Of a stretch of DNA of 64,000 nt, positions 6,462 through 45,821 are shown one piece after another. Source of the DNA: Pseudomonadota bacterium (lineage in GTDB: Bacteria; Desulfobacterota; Desulfobacteria; Desulfobacterales; RPRI01); assembly GCA_043825875.1 (NCBI GenBank), contig JBDRRF010000076.1, forward strand, positions 160,001-224,000, read 5' to 3'. The translations under genes were made by a program, and so were the position numbers. Each line of letters begins with the position of its first letter. Position 1 is the stretch's first letter. The notes beneath the pieces are model-generated. The model worked only from the letters and a program-made list of their open reading frames with translations. It had not been told where the DNA came from and did no database searches.

Positions 6462-8225
6462 ATGGCTTATGATGCAGTAAAAATGGCTGACTGGCAGATT
6501 TCCGAAGCAGCGGAAGCAAACATGCCGTCACCGGAACAATGGAGAGATAAACTTGGCCTTATGCCCGATGAAATTCTTCCTATGGGCAGGCTCGCAAAGC
6601 TTGATTTTCTTAAAATAATGAACCGCCTTGAGAAGGAAGATGATGGCAAGTATATTGAGGTTACAGCTATCACCCCTACACCGCTTGGTGAAGGTAAAAG
6701 CACAACCTCGGTCGGCCTTATGGAAGGCCTTGGTTTGCGTGGAAAAAATGTAGGCGGAGCTTTGAGGCAACCATCAGGCGGACCAACAATGAATGTTAAG
6801 GGAACTGCCGCAGGCGGTGGAAATGCACTTATTATTCCCATGACAGAGTTTTCATTGGGCCTTACAGGTGACATCAATGACATCATGAACGCTCACAACC
6901 TTGCTATGGTTGCATTAACAGCACGTATGCAGCATGAAAGAAATTATAATGATGAACAATTGGCAAGATTGACCAAGATGCGCCGGCTTGATGTTGATCC
7001 CACACGTGTTGAAATGGGATGGATAATTGATTTCTGCGCACAGGCACTTAGAAATATCATTATCGGCCTTGGCGGAAGAACAGACGGTTTCACAATGCAA
7101 TCCAAGTTTGGAATTGCCGTTGGTTCGGAATGTATGGCTATTCTTTCCATAGTCAAGGATCTTGCCGACTTAAGAAAACGTCTTGATGAAATAACTGTTG
7201 CGTTTGATAAGAGCGGCAAACCGGTTACAACCGGAGACCTTGAAGTTGGCGGTGCCATGACCGCTTTTATGAGAAACACTATTAATCCCACTCTTTTAAG
7301 TACAGCCGAATATCAGCCCTGTATGATTCATGCCGGACCGTTTGCAAACATTGCTGTAGGCCAATCATCTATCATCGCAGACCGCATTGGTCTTAAATTG
7401 CATGATTACCATGTTACAGAGAGCGGTTTTGCAGCAGATATCGGATTTGAGAAATTCTGGAACGTAAAGTGCCGCAACAGCGGTCTCAAACCCCATGTTT
7501 CAGTTCTCACCTCCACAATACGCGCTCTTAAGATGCACGGCGGCGGACCCAGAGTTGTAGCAGGAAAAGCACTTGATGAAGCATACACCAAGGAAAACCT
7601 CGCACTGGTTGAAAATGGTGTAGAGAACATGGTTCACATGATAGGCGTAATCCGCAAAGCCGGCATAAACCCGGTTGTTTGTGTTAACAGATTCTATACC
7701 GATACTGATGCTGAAGTTGCTGTTGTTAAAAGAGCGGCTGAGGCAGCCGGAGCACGCTGTGCCGAATCAAGCCACTGGGAAAAGGGCGGAGAAGGTGCTC
7801 TTGAACTGGCAGATGCCGTAATTGATGCATGTAACGAAGAAAACGATTTTAAATTCCTTTATCCGCTTGAGATGAAGCTTCGTGACAGAGTTGCTCTTAT
7901 AGCAAAAGAAGTATACGGAGCAGATGGCGTATCATGGAGTCCTGAAGCAGAAACAAAAGCCAAAATGCTTGAAAATGATCCCAAATACGCTGACTTCTCA
8001 ACAATGATGGTTAAGACTCATTTAAGCCTTACTCATGAACCGACTCTAAAGGGTGTTCCAAAAAACTGGACACTTCCGATAAGAGACATTCTGATTTATT
8101 CAGGCGCCAAATTCCTGTGCCCATGTGCAGGAACCATTAGTCTCATGCCCGGAACAAGTTCCAACCCGGCATTCAGAAGAATCGATGTTGATACAAGTAC
8201 AGGAAAAGTAAGCGGACTTTTCTAG
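6462..8225 (+). CDS. fhs: Formate--tetrahydrofolate ligase
   Basis: [53 protein letters not shown] motifs. Confidence 0.97.
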
Positions 8226-8299: not shown

Positions 8300-8354
8300 A
8301 AAATTGCAAAAATCGAATTTATGGTAACTACTTAGGTTGTTAGGTTCACAGTTT

Positions 8355-12221: not shown

Positions 12222-12297
12222 TCCCCAGTAGCTCAGCAGGTAGAGCAAGTGGCTGTTAACCACTTTGTCCGCGGTTCGAGTCCGTGCTGGGGAGCCA
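12222..12297 (+). tRNA. tRNA-Asn (GTT)
   Basis: 76-nt cloverleaf TCCCCAG...CTGGGGA-GCCA, anticodon loop ctGTTaa, GGTTCGAGTCC T-arm, encoded CCA. Confidence 0.97.
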
Positions 12298-12299
12298 AA
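12247..12299 (+). repeat. att core, left copy (3' part of tRNA-Asn)
   Basis: aagtggctgttaaccac...ggggagccaaa is identical to 20533-20585. Confidence 0.95.
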
Positions 12300-12363: not shown

Positions 12364-12450
12364 ATTTTAACTTGAAAATAAAAAAAGGCGGATGAAATCA
12401 CCCGCCCCCTTAAATTCTTTCAAAAGCCTTTCCGGATCTTTACGCTTATT

Positions 12451-12945
12451 TTATAATGCTTTTGGTGTATTCTTCCGCCGCATTCGAAAATCATCTAAAT
12501 TTAATACCGGTTCTTTTATTTTCAAATCCTCAATTTCAATCAACAAACTATCAAAGTCTTTTAGTAAAATTTGGCAAGCTGCAACGGGTGAAATGTCTTT
12601 TTCTGCTAAATCGTTCATTCTATTTATAATGCCATTAAGAAATTTATATTTATTTAAAACTTCCGCTGAAAAAAGCGGGCCATTTCGACGCATCTTTATG
12701 GCTGCAATTATATCTTTAAAAAACATGTTTGAGTATCTATCCCGCTCGGTTCGGATATTTTTTACATAATTACGATAGGTTTTTAACGTCGATTCTTTTA
12801 ATGGTTTCCCGTACTTGCTAACATGGTTTTTAAGCTTCTTTTTTATATTGATATATTTATTGATAACGTTCGTTCGGTAGTAATGTAATTTATGTTTAAG
12901 CTCAGCTTCAAGCTCATTTAAATCCATACTTTGATATTGTTTCAT
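12451..12945 (-). CDS. Hypothetical protein (element cargo)
   Basis: 164-aa ORF with ATG and a G-rich RBS. No recognised motif. Confidence 0.6.
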   Translation of the reverse strand: MKQYQSMDLNELEAELKHKLHYYRTNVINKYINIKKKLKNHVSKYGKPLKESTLKTYRNYVKNIRTERDRYSNMFFKDIIAAIKMRRNGPLFSAEVLNKYKFLNGIINRMNDLAEKDISPVAACQILLKDFDSLLIEIEDLKIKEPVLNLDDFRMRRKNTPKAL

Positions 12946-13157
12946 ATCTTACCCCCCCCTTAAAATAAAAAAGCCTGAAGGCGTCCCCGGTCCAGAGAAC
13001 CGCTCACAATATCACTATTGCAAGTACCTTCAGGCTTATTTTTAATATTTGTTTTCATGTCTCTGGCTTTGGGGTTTTTATATACTTATATACGTGTATA
13101 AGCATTGTCAAGCATTATTTATTGACTTTTAAGTTTTAAATCCATATAAAAAAAGTT

Positions 13158-13322
13158 ATGAAAGAACGAAAACCCTTCACAACAAGTTTAAACATATTGC
13201 TACTTAAAGATATTAAGAAGCTTGCAATTGACCATGACAAAGGTGTTAATGATCTTCTCGAAGAAGCTATCCGGGATATTCTAAAAAAGTATGAATTACA
13301 GTCTCAAAAACCCACCAAATAG
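13158..13322 (+). CDS. Small ribbon-helix-helix DNA-binding protein (54 aa, below ORF-track cutoff)
   Basis: MKERKPFTTSLNILLLKDIKKLAIDHDKGVNDLLEEAIRDILKKY fits the RHH pattern. TTGACT promoter element just upstream. Confidence 0.8.
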   Translation: MKERKPFTTSLNILLLKDIKKLAIDHDKGVNDLLEEAIRDILKKYELQSQKPTK

Positions 13323-13478: not shown

Positions 13479-13525
13479 GGGTCCTTCCAGAGGTCTTTCG
13501 ATATTAGGGGTAATTCGCACCCGTC
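13479..13525 (+). other. Putative lambda-type cos site (cosQ + cosN), plus-strand copy
   Basis: GGGTCCT (13479-13485), 23 nt ending TTAGG, then the 12-mer GGTAATTCGCAC (13509-13520). Same geometry as lambda GGGTCCT-23nt(..TTACG)-GGGCGGCGACCT. Confidence 0.75.
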
Positions 13526-13579
13526 TATTTTTCTACATGTGATGATTTTTCATAAGTACCTAATACCATGACATAATCA

Positions 13580-13933
13580 TTAATCCCCAAATTTAAAAAA
13601 ACCCAGATCATCATCTGGATCATCATCAACGTCATCATCCGGATCATCATCAAAGCCAAATTTGTTTATATTTACAGATAGTTCAGGATAATCATAAACA
13701 AAATCTATACACGAATTATTTTGTTTTGGCTGTTTCCGGTTTAACAGAAAGCTTTTGCGGCCCCACTCCTGCAAAGCAACTTCAAGATCAATTTTCTTTA
13801 CATTTTTTATATTAACAATAGAGTGGCTTAACTTGCCGGATTTAATCGCGGCGGAGATCCTTTGCCGTGATACTCCTATCAGCCTGGCAAATTGGCTGTT
13901 GGTTATAAAGATTCTATCTTTTTTTCGTGGCAT
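13580..13933 (-). CDS. Small winged-HTH protein, terminase small subunit (Nu1)/Rpp-like
   Basis: TNSQFARLIGVSRQRISAAIKSGKL...IDLEVALQEW HTH plus an acidic tail. Starts immediately downstream of a cos-like site, as nu1 does. Confidence 0.6.
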   Translation of the reverse strand: MPRKKDRIFITNSQFARLIGVSRQRISAAIKSGKLSHSIVNIKNVKKIDLEVALQEWGRKSFLLNRKQPKQNNSCIDFVYDYPELSVNINKFGFDDDPDDDVDDDPDDDLGFFKFGD

Positions 13934-14011
13934 GGCATAACTTTTAAAAACTGCTGTTGTTTTTTCTTTAAAATTACAACCCGATTTTGTAACTTTGTGT
14001 CTAAAAAAAGG

Positions 14012-14058
14012 GCAGGGTGCGAATTACCCCTAATGGAAAAAAACTTTTAGGAGGACCC
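14012..14058 (-). other. Putative lambda-type cos site (cosQ + cosN), minus-strand copy
   Basis: Minus strand GGGTCCT (14058-14052), 23 nt ending TTAGG, the same 12-mer GGTAATTCGCAC (14028-14017), flanked symmetrically by AGG/CCT. Confidence 0.78.
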
Positions 14059-14071
14059 GCACCTTTTCCGG

Positions 14072-14818
14072 TTAACTTGCGCTTAAAGTTTCAAGGTATT
14101 GGTCATGCAATTCCGGTTGATCATGTATAACGGCACGAACAGCCTGTGCCATTGACATGTTATGTTCCGAAGAATACTGATTAACCGCTTCCATAAATGG
14201 CTCTGTCGTATGTTCTACCTTTGCCATAGGTTCACTCTTTGGCGCCTTGGCTTCATCTATCAGGTTGTTAACGTATGATTCATGCAGATCCGGGTTTTCT
14301 TCTGACACGGCACGAACAGCCTGTGCCATTGACAAGTTATGTTCTGAAGCATACTGATTAACAACGTCCATAAAAGATAGTTTGGTTTCTGTCTGGACTG
14401 AAGCTTTGCCTTCCTCTTTTTGTTTGAGACAGATATGATCCGTCCAAAGTTTCGGATATAGCTCTTGACATCTAAGCGTTGCTACGCCCTTTGATTGTTC
14501 TTGGTGTTCCCACTGATACCTTGAAACAGCCGCCTCAAAAGTCAAAGGGATTCCACCCGGGACACCTTGCTTGCCTGTATCCTTTACTTCTTCAGGCTCA
14601 ACGGCTGCATCTGTGCTTATTAAATGGTTAAAATAACTCTCACCGTTTGGGAATTGTTTCTGAAGCTCTTTATCGCGGAAAAACTCACGATCTGCACTTA
14701 TTTTTAGCAGTAATTCTGACCCTTTAATCTCGCTCGGTTCCCCATTTTCCAGAATATGCCGATAAAAGCTTAATGCTTCCATTGTGTTTTCTGCAGGACT
14801 CAAATTATTATCCATCAT
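14072..14818 (-). CDS. Hypothetical protein with three copies of a ~35-aa helical domain (capsid scaffold-like)
   Basis: FMDVVNQYASEHNLSMAQAVRAVSEENPDLHESY and FMEAVNQYSSEHNMSMAQAVRAVIHDQPELHDQY, plus a diverged third copy. Confidence 0.7.
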   Translation of the reverse strand: MMDNNLSPAENTMEALSFYRHILENGEPSEIKGSELLLKISADREFFRDKELQKQFPNGESYFNHLISTDAAVEPEEVKDTGKQGVPGGIPLTFEAAVSRYQWEHQEQSKGVATLRCQELYPKLWTDHICLKQKEEGKASVQTETKLSFMDVVNQYASEHNLSMAQAVRAVSEENPDLHESYVNNLIDEAKAPKSEPMAKVEHTTEPFMEAVNQYSSEHNMSMAQAVRAVIHDQPELHDQYLETLSAS

Positions 14819-14829
14819 AACCCCCTTTA

Positions 14830-15384
14830 TTAAATAAAATGTGAATGTTCGAATTTTCTAAAGACGTCATTCATTTTAAATCGCATGTTTGCATCAAGCC
14901 CGGAAAGTGCGTTGGTACTATCGGGCAAGCATTCATCCTGAATAATTTTTGCCATGGTTTTAAAAGCTGTTTGACGCTCTTTAATGAACTCGTTTATTTC
15001 ATCCACGAGCAAATCGCCATGAGGAAGAAGCCGGTCAGTCAACTTTTTTAAGATTTGCTGATTGATTTCAAAAATCTGCTGTTCGATTGGTTTTATCTGT
15101 GAGTCAATTTCTTCGGGAATGTCTTCATACTGCGGAAGTAATTCAAGGATACCGGTCAGCTTTTTCTGGATTTCGGGAACCTTGGCATCATTGCCATCGA
15201 CAAGAAGATCTTTTATTTGTTTTTTCAAGTCTTCTGCCTGCTTCTCATATCCAAGAATAGTGTCCTCAACTTTCTTCTTCCGCTCCATAATCTGCTCTTT
15301 GTTTTTGATAAGCACCTGTTTTTGTTCAAGTTCAGTTTTTACTGCTTCAATACATTGGTCCAGACAGCTGTTCTCTTTCTCCAT
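14830..15384 (-). CDS. Coiled-coil hypothetical protein
   Basis: Heptad-rich E/K/Q sequence, AGGAG RBS, tightly linked to the next gene. Confidence 0.75.
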   Translation of the reverse strand: MEKENSCLDQCIEAVKTELEQKQVLIKNKEQIMERKKKVEDTILGYEKQAEDLKKQIKDLLVDGNDAKVPEIQKKLTGILELLPQYEDIPEEIDSQIKPIEQQIFEINQQILKKLTDRLLPHGDLLVDEINEFIKERQTAFKTMAKIIQDECLPDSTNALSGLDANMRFKMNDVFRKFEHSHFI

Positions 15385-15484
15385 GGTCCAATTCTCCTAT
15401 TTTGTGTAATGGTTATTAAAATTTTGCCGTGTGAATGTGCCGACCGGAAAGGGTTTCGGTTGCCGGGCCTCACGGTTGCCGGAT

Positions 15485-15727
15485 TCACACGGGCAAACTG
15501 TTTAAAGCTGTATTTGCTAAACTTATTAAAAAATTAACGTGATTTATTTCTTCTTGGTAATCATGCTTTAGCTTTTCTCTTTTCTTAAATTCTTTATAAT
15601 CAAGATATCCGCTCGGCAATTCAGAAAGCTTTGCTCTGGCATCTGCAATCCGCTTGTTATAATTTTCAAGATCAAGAACTGCTTCTTGTGTTAATTGTTC
15701 AGAAGTATAAAAAATAGTATTCGACAT
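15485..15727 (-). CDS. Small coiled-coil hypothetical protein
   Basis: MSNTIFYTSEQL... helical ORF in the element's main operon. Confidence 0.6.
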   Translation of the reverse strand: MSNTIFYTSEQLTQEAVLDLENYNKRIADARAKLSELPSGYLDYKEFKKREKLKHDYQEEINHVNFLISLANTALNSLPV

Positions 15728-15968: not shown

Positions 15969-16685
15969 TCATACCGCCACCCGATCTCTTAACTTTTGGT
16001 TTAAATAACCCGGCTTCCAATGCTTTTTTGGAATAAGAAAAACCCGCCAAACTCTTTCGCCTTCATAGGTATCATATGGTTCAATTAAAAAGTTCTTTTG
16101 AAGGCTTTTTATAGCATCCCCCACACTTCGCCTGTTGATTCCGGCAAATTCAGCTAACCGCCCAATTTCAGCACTACACAACTCCCAGCGTCGTTTTGCA
16201 AAACGCTCTTTGAACTCAAGGTTATCATATTCAACGTTCTCATCTTCTTCGGCATCATAATATGAGAAATATCTCATTACTGGATAAAGTGCTTTTGCTG
16301 TTGGTTTGAGTTCTGACCATGTGCCGCTTCTAATAATCCCATTATAAAAGAAGAACGACCGGCCATTTTCACCCTTTTGAGGAAATTTCAATTTATAGTA
16401 CTTACCCCGTTTTCCGTGCCGGGTCAGAAAATACTCCCATGTAAACCCAGGAAAACCGTCAAGGTCTTTAATACCTTGCCGTACGGTTTTAATATCTAAG
16501 CGCGATAGTGCAGCAATTGTTTCTTGACCCGGAAATGCTTTACCGTGTTCATCACAATGACAAGCAATTACAGGAAGAACCGCCTTTGCTGCTGTTGATA
16601 TATTTGACCAGTTCATATTCTCGTTCCATCTTTTATCGAAACGAAAAAACAGCGTCCAATCAATATCAGCCGAAAAATGATACAT
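15969..16685 (-). CDS. Replication initiator-like protein with tandem winged-HTH domains
   Basis: AFPGQETIAALSRLDIKTVRQGIKDL (HTH_36-like) and internal duplication WSNISTAAKAVLPVI / WSELKPTAKALYPVM. ATG 16685 follows a GAGGG RBS; iterons lie downstream. Confidence 0.75.
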   Translation of the reverse strand: MYHFSADIDWTLFFRFDKRWNENMNWSNISTAAKAVLPVIACHCDEHGKAFPGQETIAALSRLDIKTVRQGIKDLDGFPGFTWEYFLTRHGKRGKYYKLKFPQKGENGRSFFFYNGIIRSGTWSELKPTAKALYPVMRYFSYYDAEEDENVEYDNLEFKERFAKRRWELCSAEIGRLAEFAGINRRSVGDAIKSLQKNFLIEPYDTYEGERVWRVFLIPKKHWKPGYLNQKLRDRVAV

Positions 16686-16787
16686 TATTATCGCCCTCAC
16701 AGCGCAACCGCCCCACAAGAAGTAATCGGAAGAGAAACGAGGTGTGAGGTTCCTTGCCTATCGGCGCGCGCCGCCTATCTCTTCCGA
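16686..16787 (-). ncRNA. Structured leader RNA upstream of rep (possibly int-alpA motif family), copy 2
   Basis: 10-bp outer stem TCGGAAGAGA/TCTCTTCCGA enclosing TAGGC..GCCGATA and a hairpin with loop CCTCAC, which is complementary to downstream GTGGGG and GTGAGG (the RBS). Confidence 0.65.
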
Positions 16788-16928
16788 AATTCAAAATCTG
16801 CAACTGGTTTTTGTTTTGGTTATTAAATGCGTCAAGTGAACGGTTTGAGCAACCCTGGGACATAGTATCAGGCTGACACATGCCGGAAGCTGAAAACCCG
16901 CTTCTTAGAACCTCTGGTGGCTTCATGC

Positions 16929-17126
16929 TTATGCACTCAACGACTTTTCAGGATCAATCCGGTGTGAGTCTATAAAAGACTCAATATCTTTAAGCCGGTA
17001 TCTGACAGAACGCCCGATTTTAATAAATGGAAGTCCACGGCTCATAAAACGATCATTTCGTAAAGTGAATACGCTTTTACCGATAATTTTTGCTGCTTCT
17101 TTTTCGTTGATAATTCCTAAGCTCAT
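16929..17126 (-). CDS. AlpA/excisionase-like HTH protein
   Basis: INEKEAAKIIGKSVFTLRNDR..GLPFIKIGRSVRYRL.DIE is a typical MerR-like HTH_17. AAGGAG RBS. Confidence 0.9.
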   Translation of the reverse strand: MSLGIINEKEAAKIIGKSVFTLRNDRFMSRGLPFIKIGRSVRYRLKDIESFIDSHRIDPEKSLSA

Positions 17127-18370: not shown

Positions 18371-18459
18371 TGCTTGTCCATTTGCAATGCGTCCTGAAAT
18401 TTATTGAGGGAAGCTGGCAGGACATTTCCAGCTTATCGGCCCGTCGGCCTATCCCTCAA
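18371..18459 (-). ncRNA. Structured leader RNA (possibly int-alpA motif family), copy 1
   Basis: Outer stem TTGAGGGA/TCCCTCAA enclosing TAGGCC..GGCCGATA and an AGCTGG/CCAGCT hairpin with loop TGTCCTG, which is complementary to downstream CAGGAC and GGACA just before the ATG. Confidence 0.65.
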
Positions 18460-18471
18460 AAGTATTTGTAA

Positions 18472-18822
18472 TCACATAAGCACCCGGTAATCAATCTTGA
18501 GTGCATCGCCAAATAACCGGGCATTTTTCCGGCCTATAACCCTTTTCCCGTTTTCCATTTCAGAAATGTGACGCTGAGGGATTCCGGTCAATTCGGAAAG
18601 TTGCCCTTGCGTCAAACCCTCTTTATGCCTTGCGCCTGATAGGGCGACACCGGGAGAATTGTCTTTAAATTCAGGAAAGGCATCTCTCCAGGGAATAGTA
18701 TCCGATGCATCCTTATAGCCGATAGACTTCATCAACTTGACGGCCTTATCTTTCTCCGACACCGGCCCGGAGAACGTTAATACAATGCTTTTAGTACGGC
18801 GCTTTTTCGTGTGTTCCAGCAT
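18472..18822 (-). CDS. XRE-family HTH antitoxin (HigA-like)
   Basis: ARHKEGLTQGQLSELTGIPQRHISEMENGKR. Downstream of and overlapping a RelE-like toxin. Confidence 0.88.
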   Translation of the reverse strand: MLEHTKKRRTKSIVLTFSGPVSEKDKAVKLMKSIGYKDASDTIPWRDAFPEFKDNSPGVALSGARHKEGLTQGQLSELTGIPQRHISEMENGKRVIGRKNARLFGDALKIDYRVLM

Positions 18823-19072
18823 AAACAACCTCGATCAATTGTATTTCATTATCAATAATCTGCCAAACCGCAACATAGGTCGGCTGACCCTTTTTTAAAT
18901 GGCAATGGTGCCTCTGATCTTTCAGTTTGCCATAATTTGGCCAGTTGCCCCTTATCGGCCCTTTGAGTTCAATCTCTCTCAACAGGGCAAAAAGAGATTT
19001 CTTCGCCCTGACAGGCAACCGGTCAATCATCTTGTTTATCCGCCTGGGAATTACCACCTGCCATTTAATCAT
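18791..19072 (-). CDS. RelE/HigB-superfamily toxin
   Basis: 93 aa, basic, WPNYGKL...HHCHLKKG.PTYV..W...EVVYAGTHEKAPY. Toxin-first order. Confidence 0.8.
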   Translation of the reverse strand: MIKWQVVIPRRINKMIDRLPVRAKKSLFALLREIELKGPIRGNWPNYGKLKDQRHHCHLKKGQPTYVAVWQIIDNEIQLIEVVYAGTHEKAPY

Positions 19073-19162: not shown

Positions 19163-20332
19163 TCAAACTTCGTTTGCTGCTTTAACCTTTGATGTTTTGT
19201 TCGCTGGCTTGTTTATTATATCCCCTGCAAGCGCTGAGGCTCTTTTCAATGCGTCATCTCGCAAGTGTGCATACCTTTGAGTCATTAGCGGGCTCTTATG
19301 AGTCAGAAGCCTTTGCAAGGTGTATAAGTCAACTTGCCCAGAGCTTGCCAACACAGACGCATAAACATGACGGAGCCCATGCATCGGCCTAAATCCAACA
19401 GGAAGTCCAGCCTTGTTTCGGATACGGTCAACGCTTTTTCTATTCAAAGTAGTTAAATGAGATCCTTCCCTTTGCCCTGGGAAAATCCATCCATTACTTC
19501 CTGCTTTTTCTATTTTTTCTAATACAGCTAACGCAGAGCCGTTTAAAGGGATACTCTGATCTTGCCCGCCCTTTGGGTTACGGATTGTAATAAAACCCCG
19601 CTCAAAGTCAATGTCCTGCCATTTTAACCGGAATATTTCGCCCCGTCTCATGCCTGTATAAAGTGCAAGTTTCATAATACTTGCCGTTGTCTGATCTTCA
19701 TCTCTCTCTAAAACAGCCAGTAAAGATTTAATCTGATATTCTGTTAGATCTTCTGTTGTTTGGTTGTTCAATCTTGGGATTTCAATTTTAAAAGTAATAG
19801 GAGAAGTCTTGCCCTTTTTCACGCCATAATTGAGAGTCCGGCGAAGGATTTCAAGCACCCTTGCTGCTGTTGTCTTATGTCCCTTTTTTAATAACCCCAA
19901 ACGGAGCCGATCAACATCAAGCGGAAGAAGTTGACCCGGTTCTTTATCGCCAAGCACCTGCCTTATGTGAACATCGAATTTTCTTTTCTCCGCATTTATA
20001 ATTTTATTGTATGGATTATTTTCACAGTATGAATCCCAAAGTTTCGCAATAGTCCATCGGGTATTTACAGCTTCCTTCCTTGCCTTTTCAACTTCTCTTT
20101 TTTCTGTATTTGAAGTTTGATTCCCTTCAATTTTTTGTGCCCGGATACGCGCTGCCTTTGCAGGAGTCATATCATCTTGGAATTGACGCCCCACTTTTTC
20201 ATCAATTGCTTTCCCTGCTTTCCGATAACGGATATAATAAATCCTTTCCGGCCGGCCTGTAACTATTCCCTTGCTTTCAATATAATATACTCCAGGATAT
20301 TTTGTCTTGATTCGTAAAAATGATTTTGGCAT
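19163..20332 (-). CDS. int: Tyrosine recombinase / site-specific integrase
   Basis: LYTGMRRGE, K in NPKGG, HGLRH, LLTHKSPLMTQRYAH catalytic motifs. Adjacent to the att repeat. Confidence 0.95.
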   Translation of the reverse strand: MPKSFLRIKTKYPGVYYIESKGIVTGRPERIYYIRYRKAGKAIDEKVGRQFQDDMTPAKAARIRAQKIEGNQTSNTEKREVEKARKEAVNTRWTIAKLWDSYCENNPYNKIINAEKRKFDVHIRQVLGDKEPGQLLPLDVDRLRLGLLKKGHKTTAARVLEILRRTLNYGVKKGKTSPITFKIEIPRLNNQTTEDLTEYQIKSLLAVLERDEDQTTASIMKLALYTGMRRGEIFRLKWQDIDFERGFITIRNPKGGQDQSIPLNGSALAVLEKIEKAGSNGWIFPGQREGSHLTTLNRKSVDRIRNKAGLPVGFRPMHGLRHVYASVLASSGQVDLYTLQRLLTHKSPLMTQRYAHLRDDALKRASALAGDIINKPANKTSKVKAANEV

Positions 20333-20532
20333 TTTAAACCTCTTTTTGTTCCCCACACTACACAATAATTATAACCACTGCTTTTTATTCCCCACACTAT
20401 TCCCCACACATAAATTAAATATACAGGTAATAAAAAGTAAGTCAATAAAAATAATACTCAATAATAATCTATTATTTCAAGGTATTTAATGACATAAATA
20501 AAAAGGAAGGTAAATTAAGGTAAATAGCTTAA

Positions 20533-20585
20533 AAGTGGCTGTTAACCACTTTGTCCGCGGTTCGAGTCCGTGCTGGGGAGCCAAA
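20533..20585 (+). repeat. att core, right copy (duplicated 3' part of tRNA-Asn)
   Basis: Identical to 12247-12299. Lacks the tRNA 5' acceptor strand and D-arm. Confidence 0.95.
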
Positions 20586-43746: not shown

Positions 43747-45821
43747 TAAAAAGACCTCTTAGAAATAACCTTATAAAGATTAAACAAAAAAAGCAGCCCA
43801 GGATAACCGAGCGAAGCCAGATACCCTTCTTTCCATAAAACATCATTATTAAACCTCCGCCAGAAATTAATAGAAGAAACAGTTTTAAAACCATTTTCAG
43901 GAAACTTCAGCATATAATCACTACCAAAATCCTCCACATTTGAAAATTTATTAAAAATCCTACTTTCATAATACCTAGGAAACCGAAAAAATGTATTTAT
44001 CCGATTAAGAAAATACTGTGAATATACTTCAGCAGATTCTTCCATAAATGGAATAATATTAGAATAAGCATCGATAAAGTCGAAAATCCCGGCTTGCAGC
44101 GATGTTATGAGATTACGGTCTTCAAGTTCATTAAGTCTGGCTGGTTCATCTTCACTCTTGAAAAGAGGTACAATTGTTCCATTTTTTGTATCCCTATGCA
44201 GTCCAATTGTTGTTGCACTTGGAGAGCGAGTGCATAGTTCGAATAACTGGAAAAATCTATGAAAAGCACTTTGCCCCACAGATTCCCTCTCATGATGATA
44301 TAATATGCCTTCATAAGTTGATTTAGGCGTTGAAATATACGGGAGATTTCCGATAAATCCCATATAAAAACCGTATAATTGTGGCCATTCTTTTCGTTCT
44401 CTGAAGGCACATGTCAAGGCATCTTGTACAGTTCCTTGCCAACCCACATCTACCAACGCAACTCGTTGTGTTCTCCAAAAACCGATTTGAGCAAGATAAT
44501 CATACAGTAGAACTTGATGTTTCCTGCAGTTTTGTTCTACCATATAGCAGACCTGTGGATGGCGAATAAAACTCAAAAGATTATTGTTTCTGATAGGATT
44601 ATTTATAATAGCGTCTATAGATTCCAAGCCACACTCCCTGGCCAGTTGATCAAATTGTTGTGGTTCCAGACCAAGGCGGACCAACATTGTTTTAACAGAT
44701 GGTTTACTTGTAAAACTAAATCCTTTAATAACCTCTCTTATACCAATTGTCATCGCTGAAGCAGGAAAAACGGTTTTTCTGGACAAAAAGCAATATTCAC
44801 TTTTTATTGGGTTAGAGATAAGATGTTTCTTGAATGCATTGAAAATATAATTGAGGACAAAACCTTCCCTGGCAGGAAAGAGAACTAACTGAATTTCTTC
44901 TTTTACCACCCGTTCAATTACACGGTGAATAAAGTTTGCCAAAACTGGACCTAAAAGCCAAAACCCCATATCATATCTCAAATCCATAAAACGTTCAGGC
45001 TGCAATTTGTGAAGGTAAACATTGTTGAACATTTCTATGAGAGCTGCTCCAGCCCATGAACTTTTATTTTGAGCTATACGTTTTATACGAACATTCCGTT
45101 TTATTGCATGGAAATGATCATCAGGCATGAAATGAAATGAACGTCCTTTTAAACTTTTAGGTTGTAAATAATCATCTCTGAAGTTATCGCCAAAATGCAT
45201 CCAACGGTGGGGCAATATTTTTTCTTTTGCAAGCATCAGTTTGAATAACCGTCCAGTTTTTTTTCTGAGACTGTAATGAGAAGAAACGTAACAACCGTTA
45301 AATAGATTTCTGAAGCCATTATTATTAATAATAGACAATACATCCTCTTGCCGAAGATACATATCTGAGATTAAGACCACTCTCTTATTCATTTTTTTGA
45401 GTGTTATAAGAACTTCCTTCATCCCGACAACTGGAAAAGTGGCGGACTTTTCAGCATCAATTTCTGCTTTTATCAACTGATCAAATAAATGTTTATTATT
45501 GTTATTTTCCGTAAACGATTCTATCCATTCCTCAAAAACCTTATCAATCGGATGTTCCCAATCGTTTCCGGCAGCTTTTGAATTTCGTCCGATCCGTTTT
45601 TCAATTTCAAAACGCCGTTTAATTACTTCTTTTAAAGATATTGATATCCCCTGTTTAGATAATTCAGTTACCAAGGTTTTTGCAGCCGGCACTTTTGATA
45701 TTTCCGGCGGAGCTACTCGTCTCCTAATAAGCGTATCAAAAACATCGAAAGAAACCATATCAATTGAATTTTTTAGTGATATAATTATGTTTAATATTTG
45801 GTTGGTTGAACGAATCCGCAT
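43746..45821 (-). CDS. HAD-superfamily hydrolase-like protein of polysaccharide loci
   Basis: SFDVFDTLI.R, ISDMY, HFGDN..D, AREG, VDVGW.GTVQ. Confidence 0.85.
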   Translation of the reverse strand: MRIRSTNQILNIIISLKNSIDMVSFDVFDTLIRRRVAPPEISKVPAAKTLVTELSKQGISISLKEVIKRRFEIEKRIGRNSKAAGNDWEHPIDKVFEEWIESFTENNNNKHLFDQLIKAEIDAEKSATFPVVGMKEVLITLKKMNKRVVLISDMYLRQEDVLSIINNNGFRNLFNGCYVSSHYSLRKKTGRLFKLMLAKEKILPHRWMHFGDNFRDDYLQPKSLKGRSFHFMPDDHFHAIKRNVRIKRIAQNKSSWAGAALIEMFNNVYLHKLQPERFMDLRYDMGFWLLGPVLANFIHRVIERVVKEEIQLVLFPAREGFVLNYIFNAFKKHLISNPIKSEYCFLSRKTVFPASAMTIGIREVIKGFSFTSKPSVKTMLVRLGLEPQQFDQLARECGLESIDAIINNPIRNNNLLSFIRHPQVCYMVEQNCRKHQVLLYDYLAQIGFWRTQRVALVDVGWQGTVQDALTCAFRERKEWPQLYGFYMGFIGNLPYISTPKSTYEGILYHHERESVGQSAFHRFFQLFELCTRSPSATTIGLHRDTKNGTIVPLFKSEDEPARLNELEDRNLITSLQAGIFDFIDAYSNIIPFMEESAEVYSQYFLNRINTFFRFPRYYESRIFNKFSNVEDFGSDYMLKFPENGFKTVSSINFWRRFNNDVLWKEGYLASLGYPGLLFLFNLYKVISKRSF

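Follow-up and report, generated by a model that had tools for sequence, protein, structure and literature searches.

The cohesive-end (cos) sites of lambda-type phages and the packaging modules of phage-inducible chromosomal islands (PICIs) in Escherichia coli are the closest described counterparts of the locus reported here. In the text of PMC4669245, cosQ is given as a 7-bp, highly conserved site, and the bases flanking the nicks are conserved as well. The cos-rpp module of PICIs, as the text of PMC9026076 describes it, has a cosQ and a cosN like those of the helper phage and a private cosB, and the Rpp proteins, 135–153 amino acids (aa) long, carry a winged helix like that of the small terminase subunit (TerS) without the end that binds the large subunit (TerL). 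One of these islands, EcCICFT073, possesses two functional cos sites, and RppA acts on cos1 only (PMC6092414, PMC6739421, article texts). The reason for the presence of two different cos sites in some PICIs is listed as an open question in the text by the authors of the E. coli work (PMC6739421). In this study, we analyzed a window of 64,000 nucleotides (nt) from contig JBDRRF010000076.1 of an uncultured groundwater bacterium and focused on a 580-bp segment, in which two inverted cosQ-cosN-like sites enclose the gene of a 117-aa protein, here referred to as P0001. The segment sits within an 8.3-kb integrase island in a tRNA-Asn gene. Reading its sequence, we consider it, with a probability of about 75%, to be a PICI-type packaging cassette: both arms would be cos sites of a GpA-type terminase, P0001 would bind the private cosB of the right arm and redirect the terminase of a helper phage, and the left arm would be a phage-type site facing the opposite way.

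The segment is delimited by an imperfect inverted repeat, found by a repeat search, whose 57-nt arms (13479–13535 and 14002–14058) are 75% complementary and lie 466 nt apart. Both arms contain the perfect 20-mer ATTAGGGGTAATTCGCACCC, and GGGTCCT stands 17 nt outward of each copy (Table 1), just as the original prediction had described. We take this exact heptamer to be cosQ. With up to three mismatches allowed, the 18-mer core is found at these two sites only in the window (the shuffle mean is 0.03, and 0 of 100 shuffles contained two sites), and the 20-mer at these two only in the whole 4.77-Mb assembly, with 0 matches for the reversed control. The heptamer by itself is not rare, with four copies in the window against 3.79 expected, and it draws its evidential weight from standing at one and the same position in the two arms. 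Beyond heptamer and core, the arms agree at 8 of the 17 spacer bases, 14 of the next 30 and 24 of the next 78, in keeping with the earlier claims that the 17-bp spacers are otherwise largely different and that the sequences at the cosB positions differ. Since heptamer and core are identical and their surroundings have diverged, two short blocks at a fixed distance appear to have been kept, with the rest free to vary. The lambda-style distance from cosQ to the nick, also claimed before, was recovered by comparison with the phage itself: the right end of lambda has GGGTCCT and then exactly 23 nt, which is also how far the heptamer lies from the nick predicted here. The heptamer is also present in the CFT073 prophage, at both EcCICFT073 sites and in the N41 island of E. 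coli, always with the 23-nt spacing except for two N41 sites with 24. Two-fold symmetry of cosN about the axis extends to 6 of 14 positions in the left arm and 4 of 14 in the right arm, and phage-type sites range from 1 to 8 of 14.

The original prediction depended on phages sharing the predicted 12-nt cohesive end, and this 12-mer is indeed shared. The pattern GGGTCCT-N23-GGTAATTCGCAC, that is, the 12-mer at the lambda offset, was found in 18 public contigs (loci L011–L028, of which 4 are viral contigs, 5 genome contigs and 9 metagenome contigs; 17 of the 18 distinct), while the reversed pattern had 0 matches in the viral contig set (viral_contigs). All the named genome contigs with the pattern belong to Alphaproteobacteria, for example Thalassovita gelatinovora, Marinibacterium sp. 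and Pararhizobium arenae. Open reading frames (ORFs) downstream of the site were scanned with Pfam at 14 of the 18 loci; the other four are L015, a prophage of Thalassovita gelatinovora CECT 4357 whose site sequence and ORF layout are the same as those of L014, and L021, L022 and L023, whose downstream DNA was too short for the scan. As a result, at eight of the 14 loci (L011, L012, L013, L014, L017, L020, L025 and L026) an ORF of 185–240 aa is directly followed by a GpA_ATPase protein, which also carries GpA_nuclease wherever its ORF is complete, and the TerS-sized ORF often has weak matches to Nu1 or DUF1441. At L016 a Nu1/Terminase_4 protein is encoded 1.1 kb downstream of the site, and at L018, L024, L027 and L028 nothing was found in the downstream ORFs chosen for the scan. 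Bases outside the pattern are conserved too, including a TCC that follows the heptamer, a C.CG ahead of the nick and a C behind the 12-mer, which in phage and prophage loci is mostly followed by CC. Moreover, many pattern sites are dyad-symmetric, and their axis falls in the middle of the 12-mer, as nicking of the lambda type would have it. None of the 18 loci contains a second copy of the 12-mer; because no phage-type locus has one, the inverted pair is a feature of the satellites and not of the phages. We found no published paper that prints the 12-mer or its complement.

Two further records of these searches deserve description. L019, a 9.7-kb contig from a Rhodobacterales metagenome-assembled genome, carries the site at 2310–2351. 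Downstream come a 227-aa ORF, the gene of a ClpP-type protease and a capsid gene, with no terS-terL directly after the site; the contig may stem from a satellite that encodes a capsid and has this class of cos. In Dinoroseobacter phage vB_DshS-R4C (L029, L030), GGGTCCTTCCTGG lies 33 nt before the record end; read across the ends, terS-terL follows shortly downstream. Its cosN position has another sequence, and in a quick tree its large terminase falls together with five from the 12-mer class.

P0001 had been described as TerS-like, which holds for its N-terminal domain, of phrog_57/Nu1 type, and not for a whole TerS. Its sole meaningful family match is phrog_57, "terminase small subunit" (E 4.7e-6, residues 7–67 on profile positions 10–69 of 199), a family to which lambda Nu1 belongs (E 1.3e-76). 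An exhaustive HMMER search of 1.84 billion representatives detected seven remote relatives at E ≤ 0.001, five of which are full-length phrog_57 small terminases of 162–199 aa (E 1.8e-22 to 5.1e-31); the remaining ones are a 77-aa phrog_57 match and a 576-aa protein without a phrog_57 match, and all seven align only to the first ~60 residues of P0001. The AlphaFold2 model contains a confident strand-helix-helix-strand-strand-long helix arrangement over residues 1–65, with a predicted local distance difference test score (pLDDT) of 83–91 at residues 11–60. When VIA-align was run over the 998 best chains of Foldseek, the top one was 6hn7_B, from an RppC-TerS entry (Z 8.2, root-mean-square deviation 1.7 Å over 62 residues), and the lambda Nu1 domain 1j9i reached Z 5.1. 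Other searches gave less: comparison of the P0001 sequence with solved structures returned nothing meaningful (best E 1.2), the leads from the ESM Atlas were only generic HTH_17 and DUF1441-like ones, a word-indexed search for close relatives found only the protein itself among 45 candidates, and 300 other genomes of the host order yielded merely two marginal matches (E about 0.006–0.008). A predicted complex of two copies of residues 1–72 scored 0.28 against a mark of 0.42. The tail of the protein (residues ~94–117) consists of an aspartate run ending in LGFFKFGD; this tail, DDDPDDDVDDDPDDDLGFFKFGD (window 13580–13650), may resemble the acidic/hydrophobic C-terminal tips with which single-strand-binding proteins dock their partners. 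Judging from the family matches, P0001 is a probable Nu1-type small-terminase derivative, which keeps only the DNA-binding winged helix.

The same synteny is present in E. coli. In the CFT073 chromosome the island cos sites (L007:7529–7564 on the + strand and 8304–8339 on the − strand) are oppositely oriented and point inward at a 144-aa gene (7660–8094) between them, which from its position is taken as rppA (c1503); the helper prophage has its own cos at 44715 (+), ahead of its terS. The product of the 144-aa gene matches phrog_57 with its N-terminal part only (residues 7–47, E 3.9e-8), the same pattern as for P0001. In the E. coli N41 island (L031), the same inverted cos pair surrounds a full-length TerS of 180 aa, which matches the whole phrog_57 profile (E 3.1e-53). 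This island also has a third cosQ-cosN-like site, with a 24-nt spacer, at L031:3568–3604 (+). The original prediction had considered the head-to-head arrangement unusual, but since the pairs of CFT073 and N41 are both inverted, this layout is the archetype's own and not an oddity. No statement on the inverted orientation of cos1 and cos2 was found in the article text on EcCICFT073, supplementary figures aside. The architecture is already known from E. coli, and what is new here is the host outside E. coli, the non-lambda cosN class and the minimal Rpp-like protein with a disordered acidic tail.

The two arms are not equivalent. In fixed register with the cos of the CFT073 lambdoid prophage, bp 13–47 of the left arm agree at 20 of 35 positions, which is equalled by 11 of 20,000 shuffles, and those of the right arm at 13 of 35, equalled by 2,047 of 20,000. 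The EcCICFT073 sites offer a parallel, as the phage-like cos2 matches the helper at 28 of the 30 following bases and the private cos1 at 24 of 30. At the cosB position of the right arm there is a palindrome, TTACAA-N7-TTGTAA, at bp 37–55 from the predicted end, near the R3 positions published in the text of PMC9026076; the left-arm cosB position contains no palindrome of at least 6 bp. The start codon of P0001 lies at bp 96, counted from the predicted first base of the right-arm cohesive end, and the published start codons are at bp 89 for N15 gene 1, bp 102 for PICI-C rpp and bp 191 for lambda Nu1 (PMC9026076, text).

The cassette could work as follows. Each arm, read inward, would consist of the cosQ heptamer, 23 nt and cosN, and a staggered cut at cosN would produce the 12-nt end GGTAATTCGCAC. 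The right arm would have the phage order cosQ-cosN-cosB-gene, its putative private cosB being directly upstream of P0001. Upon infection by a helper phage of this cosN class, P0001 would bind the private cosB and steer the helper terminase to the island, either by pairing with the helper TerS in the manner of the E. coli Rpp or by means of its acidic tail, which would contact TerL. Packaging would then proceed leftward from the right arm. The left arm might be used by the unmodified helper terminase and provide a second, opposite entry point, like cos2 of EcCICFT073. The two sites may thus answer to different specificity proteins, as suggested by the asymmetry of the arms and by analogy with EcCICFT073, of which only cos1 responds to RppA according to the text of PMC6739421.

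A number of observations weigh against this reading. Part of them concern P0001 and its presumed target. Rpp, which acts on the helper TerS and prevents packaging of the helper, has a helical C-terminal half (alpha3 to alpha6) for dimerisation and for pairing with TerS, while residues 65–101 and 107–117 of P0001 have a pLDDT below 50 and no helices are predicted past residue 65; in addition, BLASTP of P0001 against the CFT073 gene taken as rppA (L007:7660–8094) gave E 3.3, that is, no pairwise similarity. The N-terminal winged helix like that of lambda TerS is the Rpp trait that P0001 does have, and because the two defining features of a helical C-terminal half and sequence similarity are missing, we class it as acting like Rpp and not as a member of the family. 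Foldseek alone gave no match at E ≤ 0.001, and excisionases, MerR-type folds and another phage TerS DNA-binding domain score within about one Z unit of 6hn7_B, so the fold of P0001 alone is not specific. The right-arm palindrome is ordinary by shuffling, with at least one match in 41 of 100 shuffles. Others concern the helper, which was not found, and the activity of the island. The host assembly, which is 99.8% complete, has no match to the large-terminase families PF05876, PF03354, PF03237 and PF04466, and PF05876 (GpA ATPase) is found in 0 of 17 genomes of the host family. Among 400 other genomes of the host order, the pattern with up to two mismatches was found in three, against 11 for the reversed control, so matches at the order level are chance. 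The pattern contigs have 54–71% G+C, except for one 2.2-kb contig with 41% that ends 82 nt past the site, against ~35–42% in the island region. Large terminases of the 12-mer class are not monophyletic in the quick tree, in which the starred branches force at least three changes. The island is assembled as a separate contig of 8,291 bp in the probable source run, with a depth of 26.5, compared with 27–27.6 in the flanks, and no joints were present; with equal depth and no joints, nothing in the contigs of this run shows island activity.

Some further results bear on the helper phage. The seven large terminases of the 12-mer class clustered in the quick tree (4 of 500 shuffles were as low). One terminase clade per cos class was rejected owing to the changes forced there, and as these terminases are not one clade, the helper lineage is not predictable from cosN. 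The 18-mer core had 0 matches in viral_contigs, and a BLAST search of the left arm against 50,697 phage records returned chance-level matches only (E 2). GpA-type ATPase domains are encoded in 34 of 301 genomes sampled from the host order, and hence phages of the GpA type infect this order. GGGTCCT occurs within 1.5 kb upstream on the coding strand at 9 of 30 such GpA loci, against ~2.6 expected by our own arithmetic, and the sequence at the cosN position is different in each of the nine. Two relaxed-pattern matches in the host order were taken as chance: L038 lies among ordinary chromosomal genes, and L037 has a degenerate heptamer and precedes a primase-polymerase gene. The L037 site (genome G341, 38% G+C, ~7220–7261) contains the exact 12-mer preceded by CGCG, with two mismatches in the heptamer; it is located 168 bp before the primase-polymerase/DUF5906 gene in mobile DNA with several recombinases nearby.

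Four other explanations of the inverted arms were considered, each of which accounts for less than a packaging cassette does. The missing helper (in the host genome, the family and the sampled order), the absence from P0001 of the C-terminal two thirds of a TerS, and contigs in which no excision or amplification is visible would all agree with a dead relic, namely a captured phage cos-terS region that was duplicated in inverted orientation and is no longer cut or used, P0001 being a decaying truncated terS. We regard this as rather unlikely, since core and heptamer are identical between the arms amid near-random surroundings, as selection on those blocks would give; the ORF of P0001 is intact and its domain is confidently folded in the model, the att repeats have stayed intact over 53 bp or more, the integrase is full length, and the same architecture is functional in E. 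coli according to the text of PMC6092414. It is quite improbable that the segment is an invertible one, flipped by the island recombinase or by homologous recombination and switching the expression of P0001 or the direction of packaging, even though inverted repeats around a gene have the geometry of such a switch and the switch would be compatible with cos function. The region encodes no serine invertase, the sole recombinase of the island is the tyrosine integrase ~5 kb off, and perfect identity extends over merely 20 bp. No strand-changing joint was seen in three sequencing runs, as contigs, which drop rare variants. Furthermore, inversion leaves the lambda spacing and the phage-shared 12-mer unexplained.

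Regulation would give the arms a different role, as operators for P0001 or another repressor, or as a terminator pair insulating the gene. P0001 is a likely winged-helix DNA binder in both family matches and model, and a weak hairpin of terminator type, with a T run behind it, was picked up in the right core by a consensus scan. However, RNA folding was obtained for the right arm only (−16.2 kcal/mol, z −1.42), while the left arm folds more poorly than its own shuffles (z +1.69), and the terminator pair was ruled out because the left arm does not fold. The heptamer, the spacing and the 12-mer are also found upstream of terS-terL in unrelated phages, which would not be expected of an island-private operator. 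Such a regulatory role is therefore very unlikely. The least probable explanation, which we consider extremely unlikely, takes the segment for a miniature transposable element, with the 57-bp arms as terminal inverted repeats around a passenger gene. Terminal inverted repeats do bracket the 580-bp unit, but the core has no further copy in the genome, even at up to three mismatches, the cassette DNA has no match in the 16 other genomes of the host family, its flanks show no target-site duplication, and no transposase is present. The possibility raised with the original prediction, that the repeats are invertase sites or transposon ends, has thus not been borne out: neither an adjacent invertase or transposase nor extra copies or a target duplication were found.

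The island as a whole was also examined, and its features are compiled in Table 1. We scanned 15 ORFs of at least 40 aa with Pfam and PHROGs and found no convincing virion, lysis or large-terminase gene among them; the sole head-and-packaging match besides that of P0001 is a marginal one of P0002 to phrog_976 (E 0.0015, 0 stretches). No primase domain was found in the island, whose replication protein is of the HTH_36 type, and several orphan proteins are encoded as well. The traits of Gram-negative PICIs are present: an integrase with att repeats, an AlpA-type regulator and an own replication initiator, without a full virion/lysis set and without a large terminase. Judged by its gene families, the island has the make-up of a PICI-type phage satellite. 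The window has ~30–45% G+C, and the island region ~35–42%.

Table 1. Coordinates of the cassette and the surrounding island in the window.
Feature	Position	Strand	Evidence or remark
tRNA-Asn (GTT), integration target	12222..12297	+	ARAGORN; Rfam tRNA 65.3 bits
Left att direct repeat, 3' part of tRNA-Asn	12247..12299	.	exact repeat of at least 53 bp with 20533–20585
Arc/ribbon-helix-helix-like small gene just outside the left arm	13158..13322	+	phrog_3180 Arc-like repressor E 1.5e-6; Pfam Antitox_RHH E 2.4e-5, under cut-off
Left-arm cosQ-like heptamer GGGTCCT	13479..13485	+	same heptamer and 23-nt distance to predicted nick as lambda
Left-arm perfect 20-bp core, cosN-like	13503..13522	+	predicted 12-nt cohesive end 13509–13520
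Left-arm cosB-position sequence	13523..13579	+	T-rich, resembles lambda-type phage cos
P0001 gene, 117 aa	13580..13933	-	Nu1/Rpp-type winged helix (~residues 5–65) and disordered acidic tail, predicted
Right-arm cosB-position sequence, private	13934..14014	-	palindrome 13974–13992; ATG at bp 96
Right-arm perfect 20-bp core	14015..14034	-	predicted cohesive end 14028–14017
Right-arm cosQ-like heptamer	14052..14058	-	GGGTCCT
P0002, 248-aa orphan with internal repeat, directly upstream of the cassette	14072..14818	-	
Replication-initiator-like protein	15969..16718	-	Pfam HTH_36 E 1.4e-13; phrog_1032 replication initiation protein E 5e-10
AlpA/excisionase-like HTH_17 protein	16929..17126	-	Pfam HTH_17 E 2.4e-6, 28.1 bits vs cut-off 27
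int-alpA RNA motif	18392..18459	-	Rfam RF02996, 39.3 bits vs gathering score 35.8
cI/Xre-type HTH repressor-like gene	18472..18828	-	Pfam HTH_3 E 5.7e-8
Tyrosine integrase, full length	19163..20365	-	Pfam Phage_integrase E 4.7e-30; phrog_1 E 2.5e-55
Right att direct repeat	20533..20585	.	pairs with left att

Several other features of the island were recorded. The int-alpA RNA motif lies upstream of a 348-aa orphan gene. The P0002 gene contains an internal direct repeat of 105 nt with 81% identity (window 14093–14197 and 14270–14374), which encodes a duplicated motif, roughly ...VNQY.SEHN.SMAQAVRAV...P.LH..Y. In a search of 5.8 billion proteins, P0002 found only itself; it also matched no viral locus. 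Contigs ~88–92% identical to parts of the island and its chromosomal flanks occur in two marine metagenome runs, which may be a single data set deposited twice; the identity is taken from the mismatch counts of the listed pieces. Their matches cover window 12418–13016, 14249–15577 and 16344–16857, and as they include parts of the island, a related island exists in a marine relative.

The cassette provides a second, independent system in which a facing cos pair can be tested. A facing pair around a TerS-derived gene, in a distant host and with another cut site, argues that the pair is a functional unit. The work also defines the cohesive-end class GGGTCCT-N23-GGTAATTCGCAC, common to many GpA-terminase prophages, and the prophages of cultivable marine Alphaproteobacteria with this cos class could act as stand-in helpers. 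At 117 aa, P0001 suggests that terminase redirection may be feasible with less protein than Rpp. We tentatively raise a broader idea, doubtful as it is at present: the inverted cos pair around a TerS-derived specificity gene might be an old, portable cassette for packaging hijack that was either retained or invented again in hosts as unrelated as E. coli and this groundwater bacterium, each with its own cohesive-end class. If this were true, the facing second site would be selected and not accidental, serving two-way packaging, including that of flanking host DNA, or baiting the unmodified terminase of the helper. P0001 would then be a new minimal solution, in which a DNA-binding domain and an acidic tail recruit or block the terminase without the dimerisation domain of Rpp.

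Compared with the known systems, the locus shares different parts with each. The cos of lambda and N15 has the same order of cosQ, cosN, cosB and small-terminase gene and a T-rich flank after cosN, but its cohesive-end sequence is another one, and the locus here lacks a set of three R repeats and a large terminase and has a second, inverted copy. With the pattern prophages and viral contigs (L011–L028), the heptamer, the spacing and the 12-mer are identical; these have a single site, followed where found by a full TerS and a GpA-family TerL, and their G+C content is high in all but one. The inverted pair of the N41 PICI likewise brackets a phrog_57 specificity gene, which encodes a complete TerS there, whereas P0001 represents the N-terminal third only. 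The differences from EcCICFT073 are that cosN is GGTAATTCGCAC here and GGGCGGCGACCT there, agreeing at 3 of 12 positions, that the 117-aa P0001 has a disordered acidic tail in place of the helical dimerisation half of the 135–153-aa Rpp proteins, that the island here has no capsid or decoration genes, and that its putative cos arms, 57 nt long, 75% complementary and 466 nt apart, are shorter. As to the likeness to EcCICFT073, both are integrase/AlpA islands without a large terminase, with two cosQ-cosN sites that differ in their cosB parts and are inverted around a short gene with only a Nu1-type N-terminal winged helix. In both, the cassette is located at the island end distal to int, the gene starts ~100 bp past the predicted end, and one site is more phage-like than the other.

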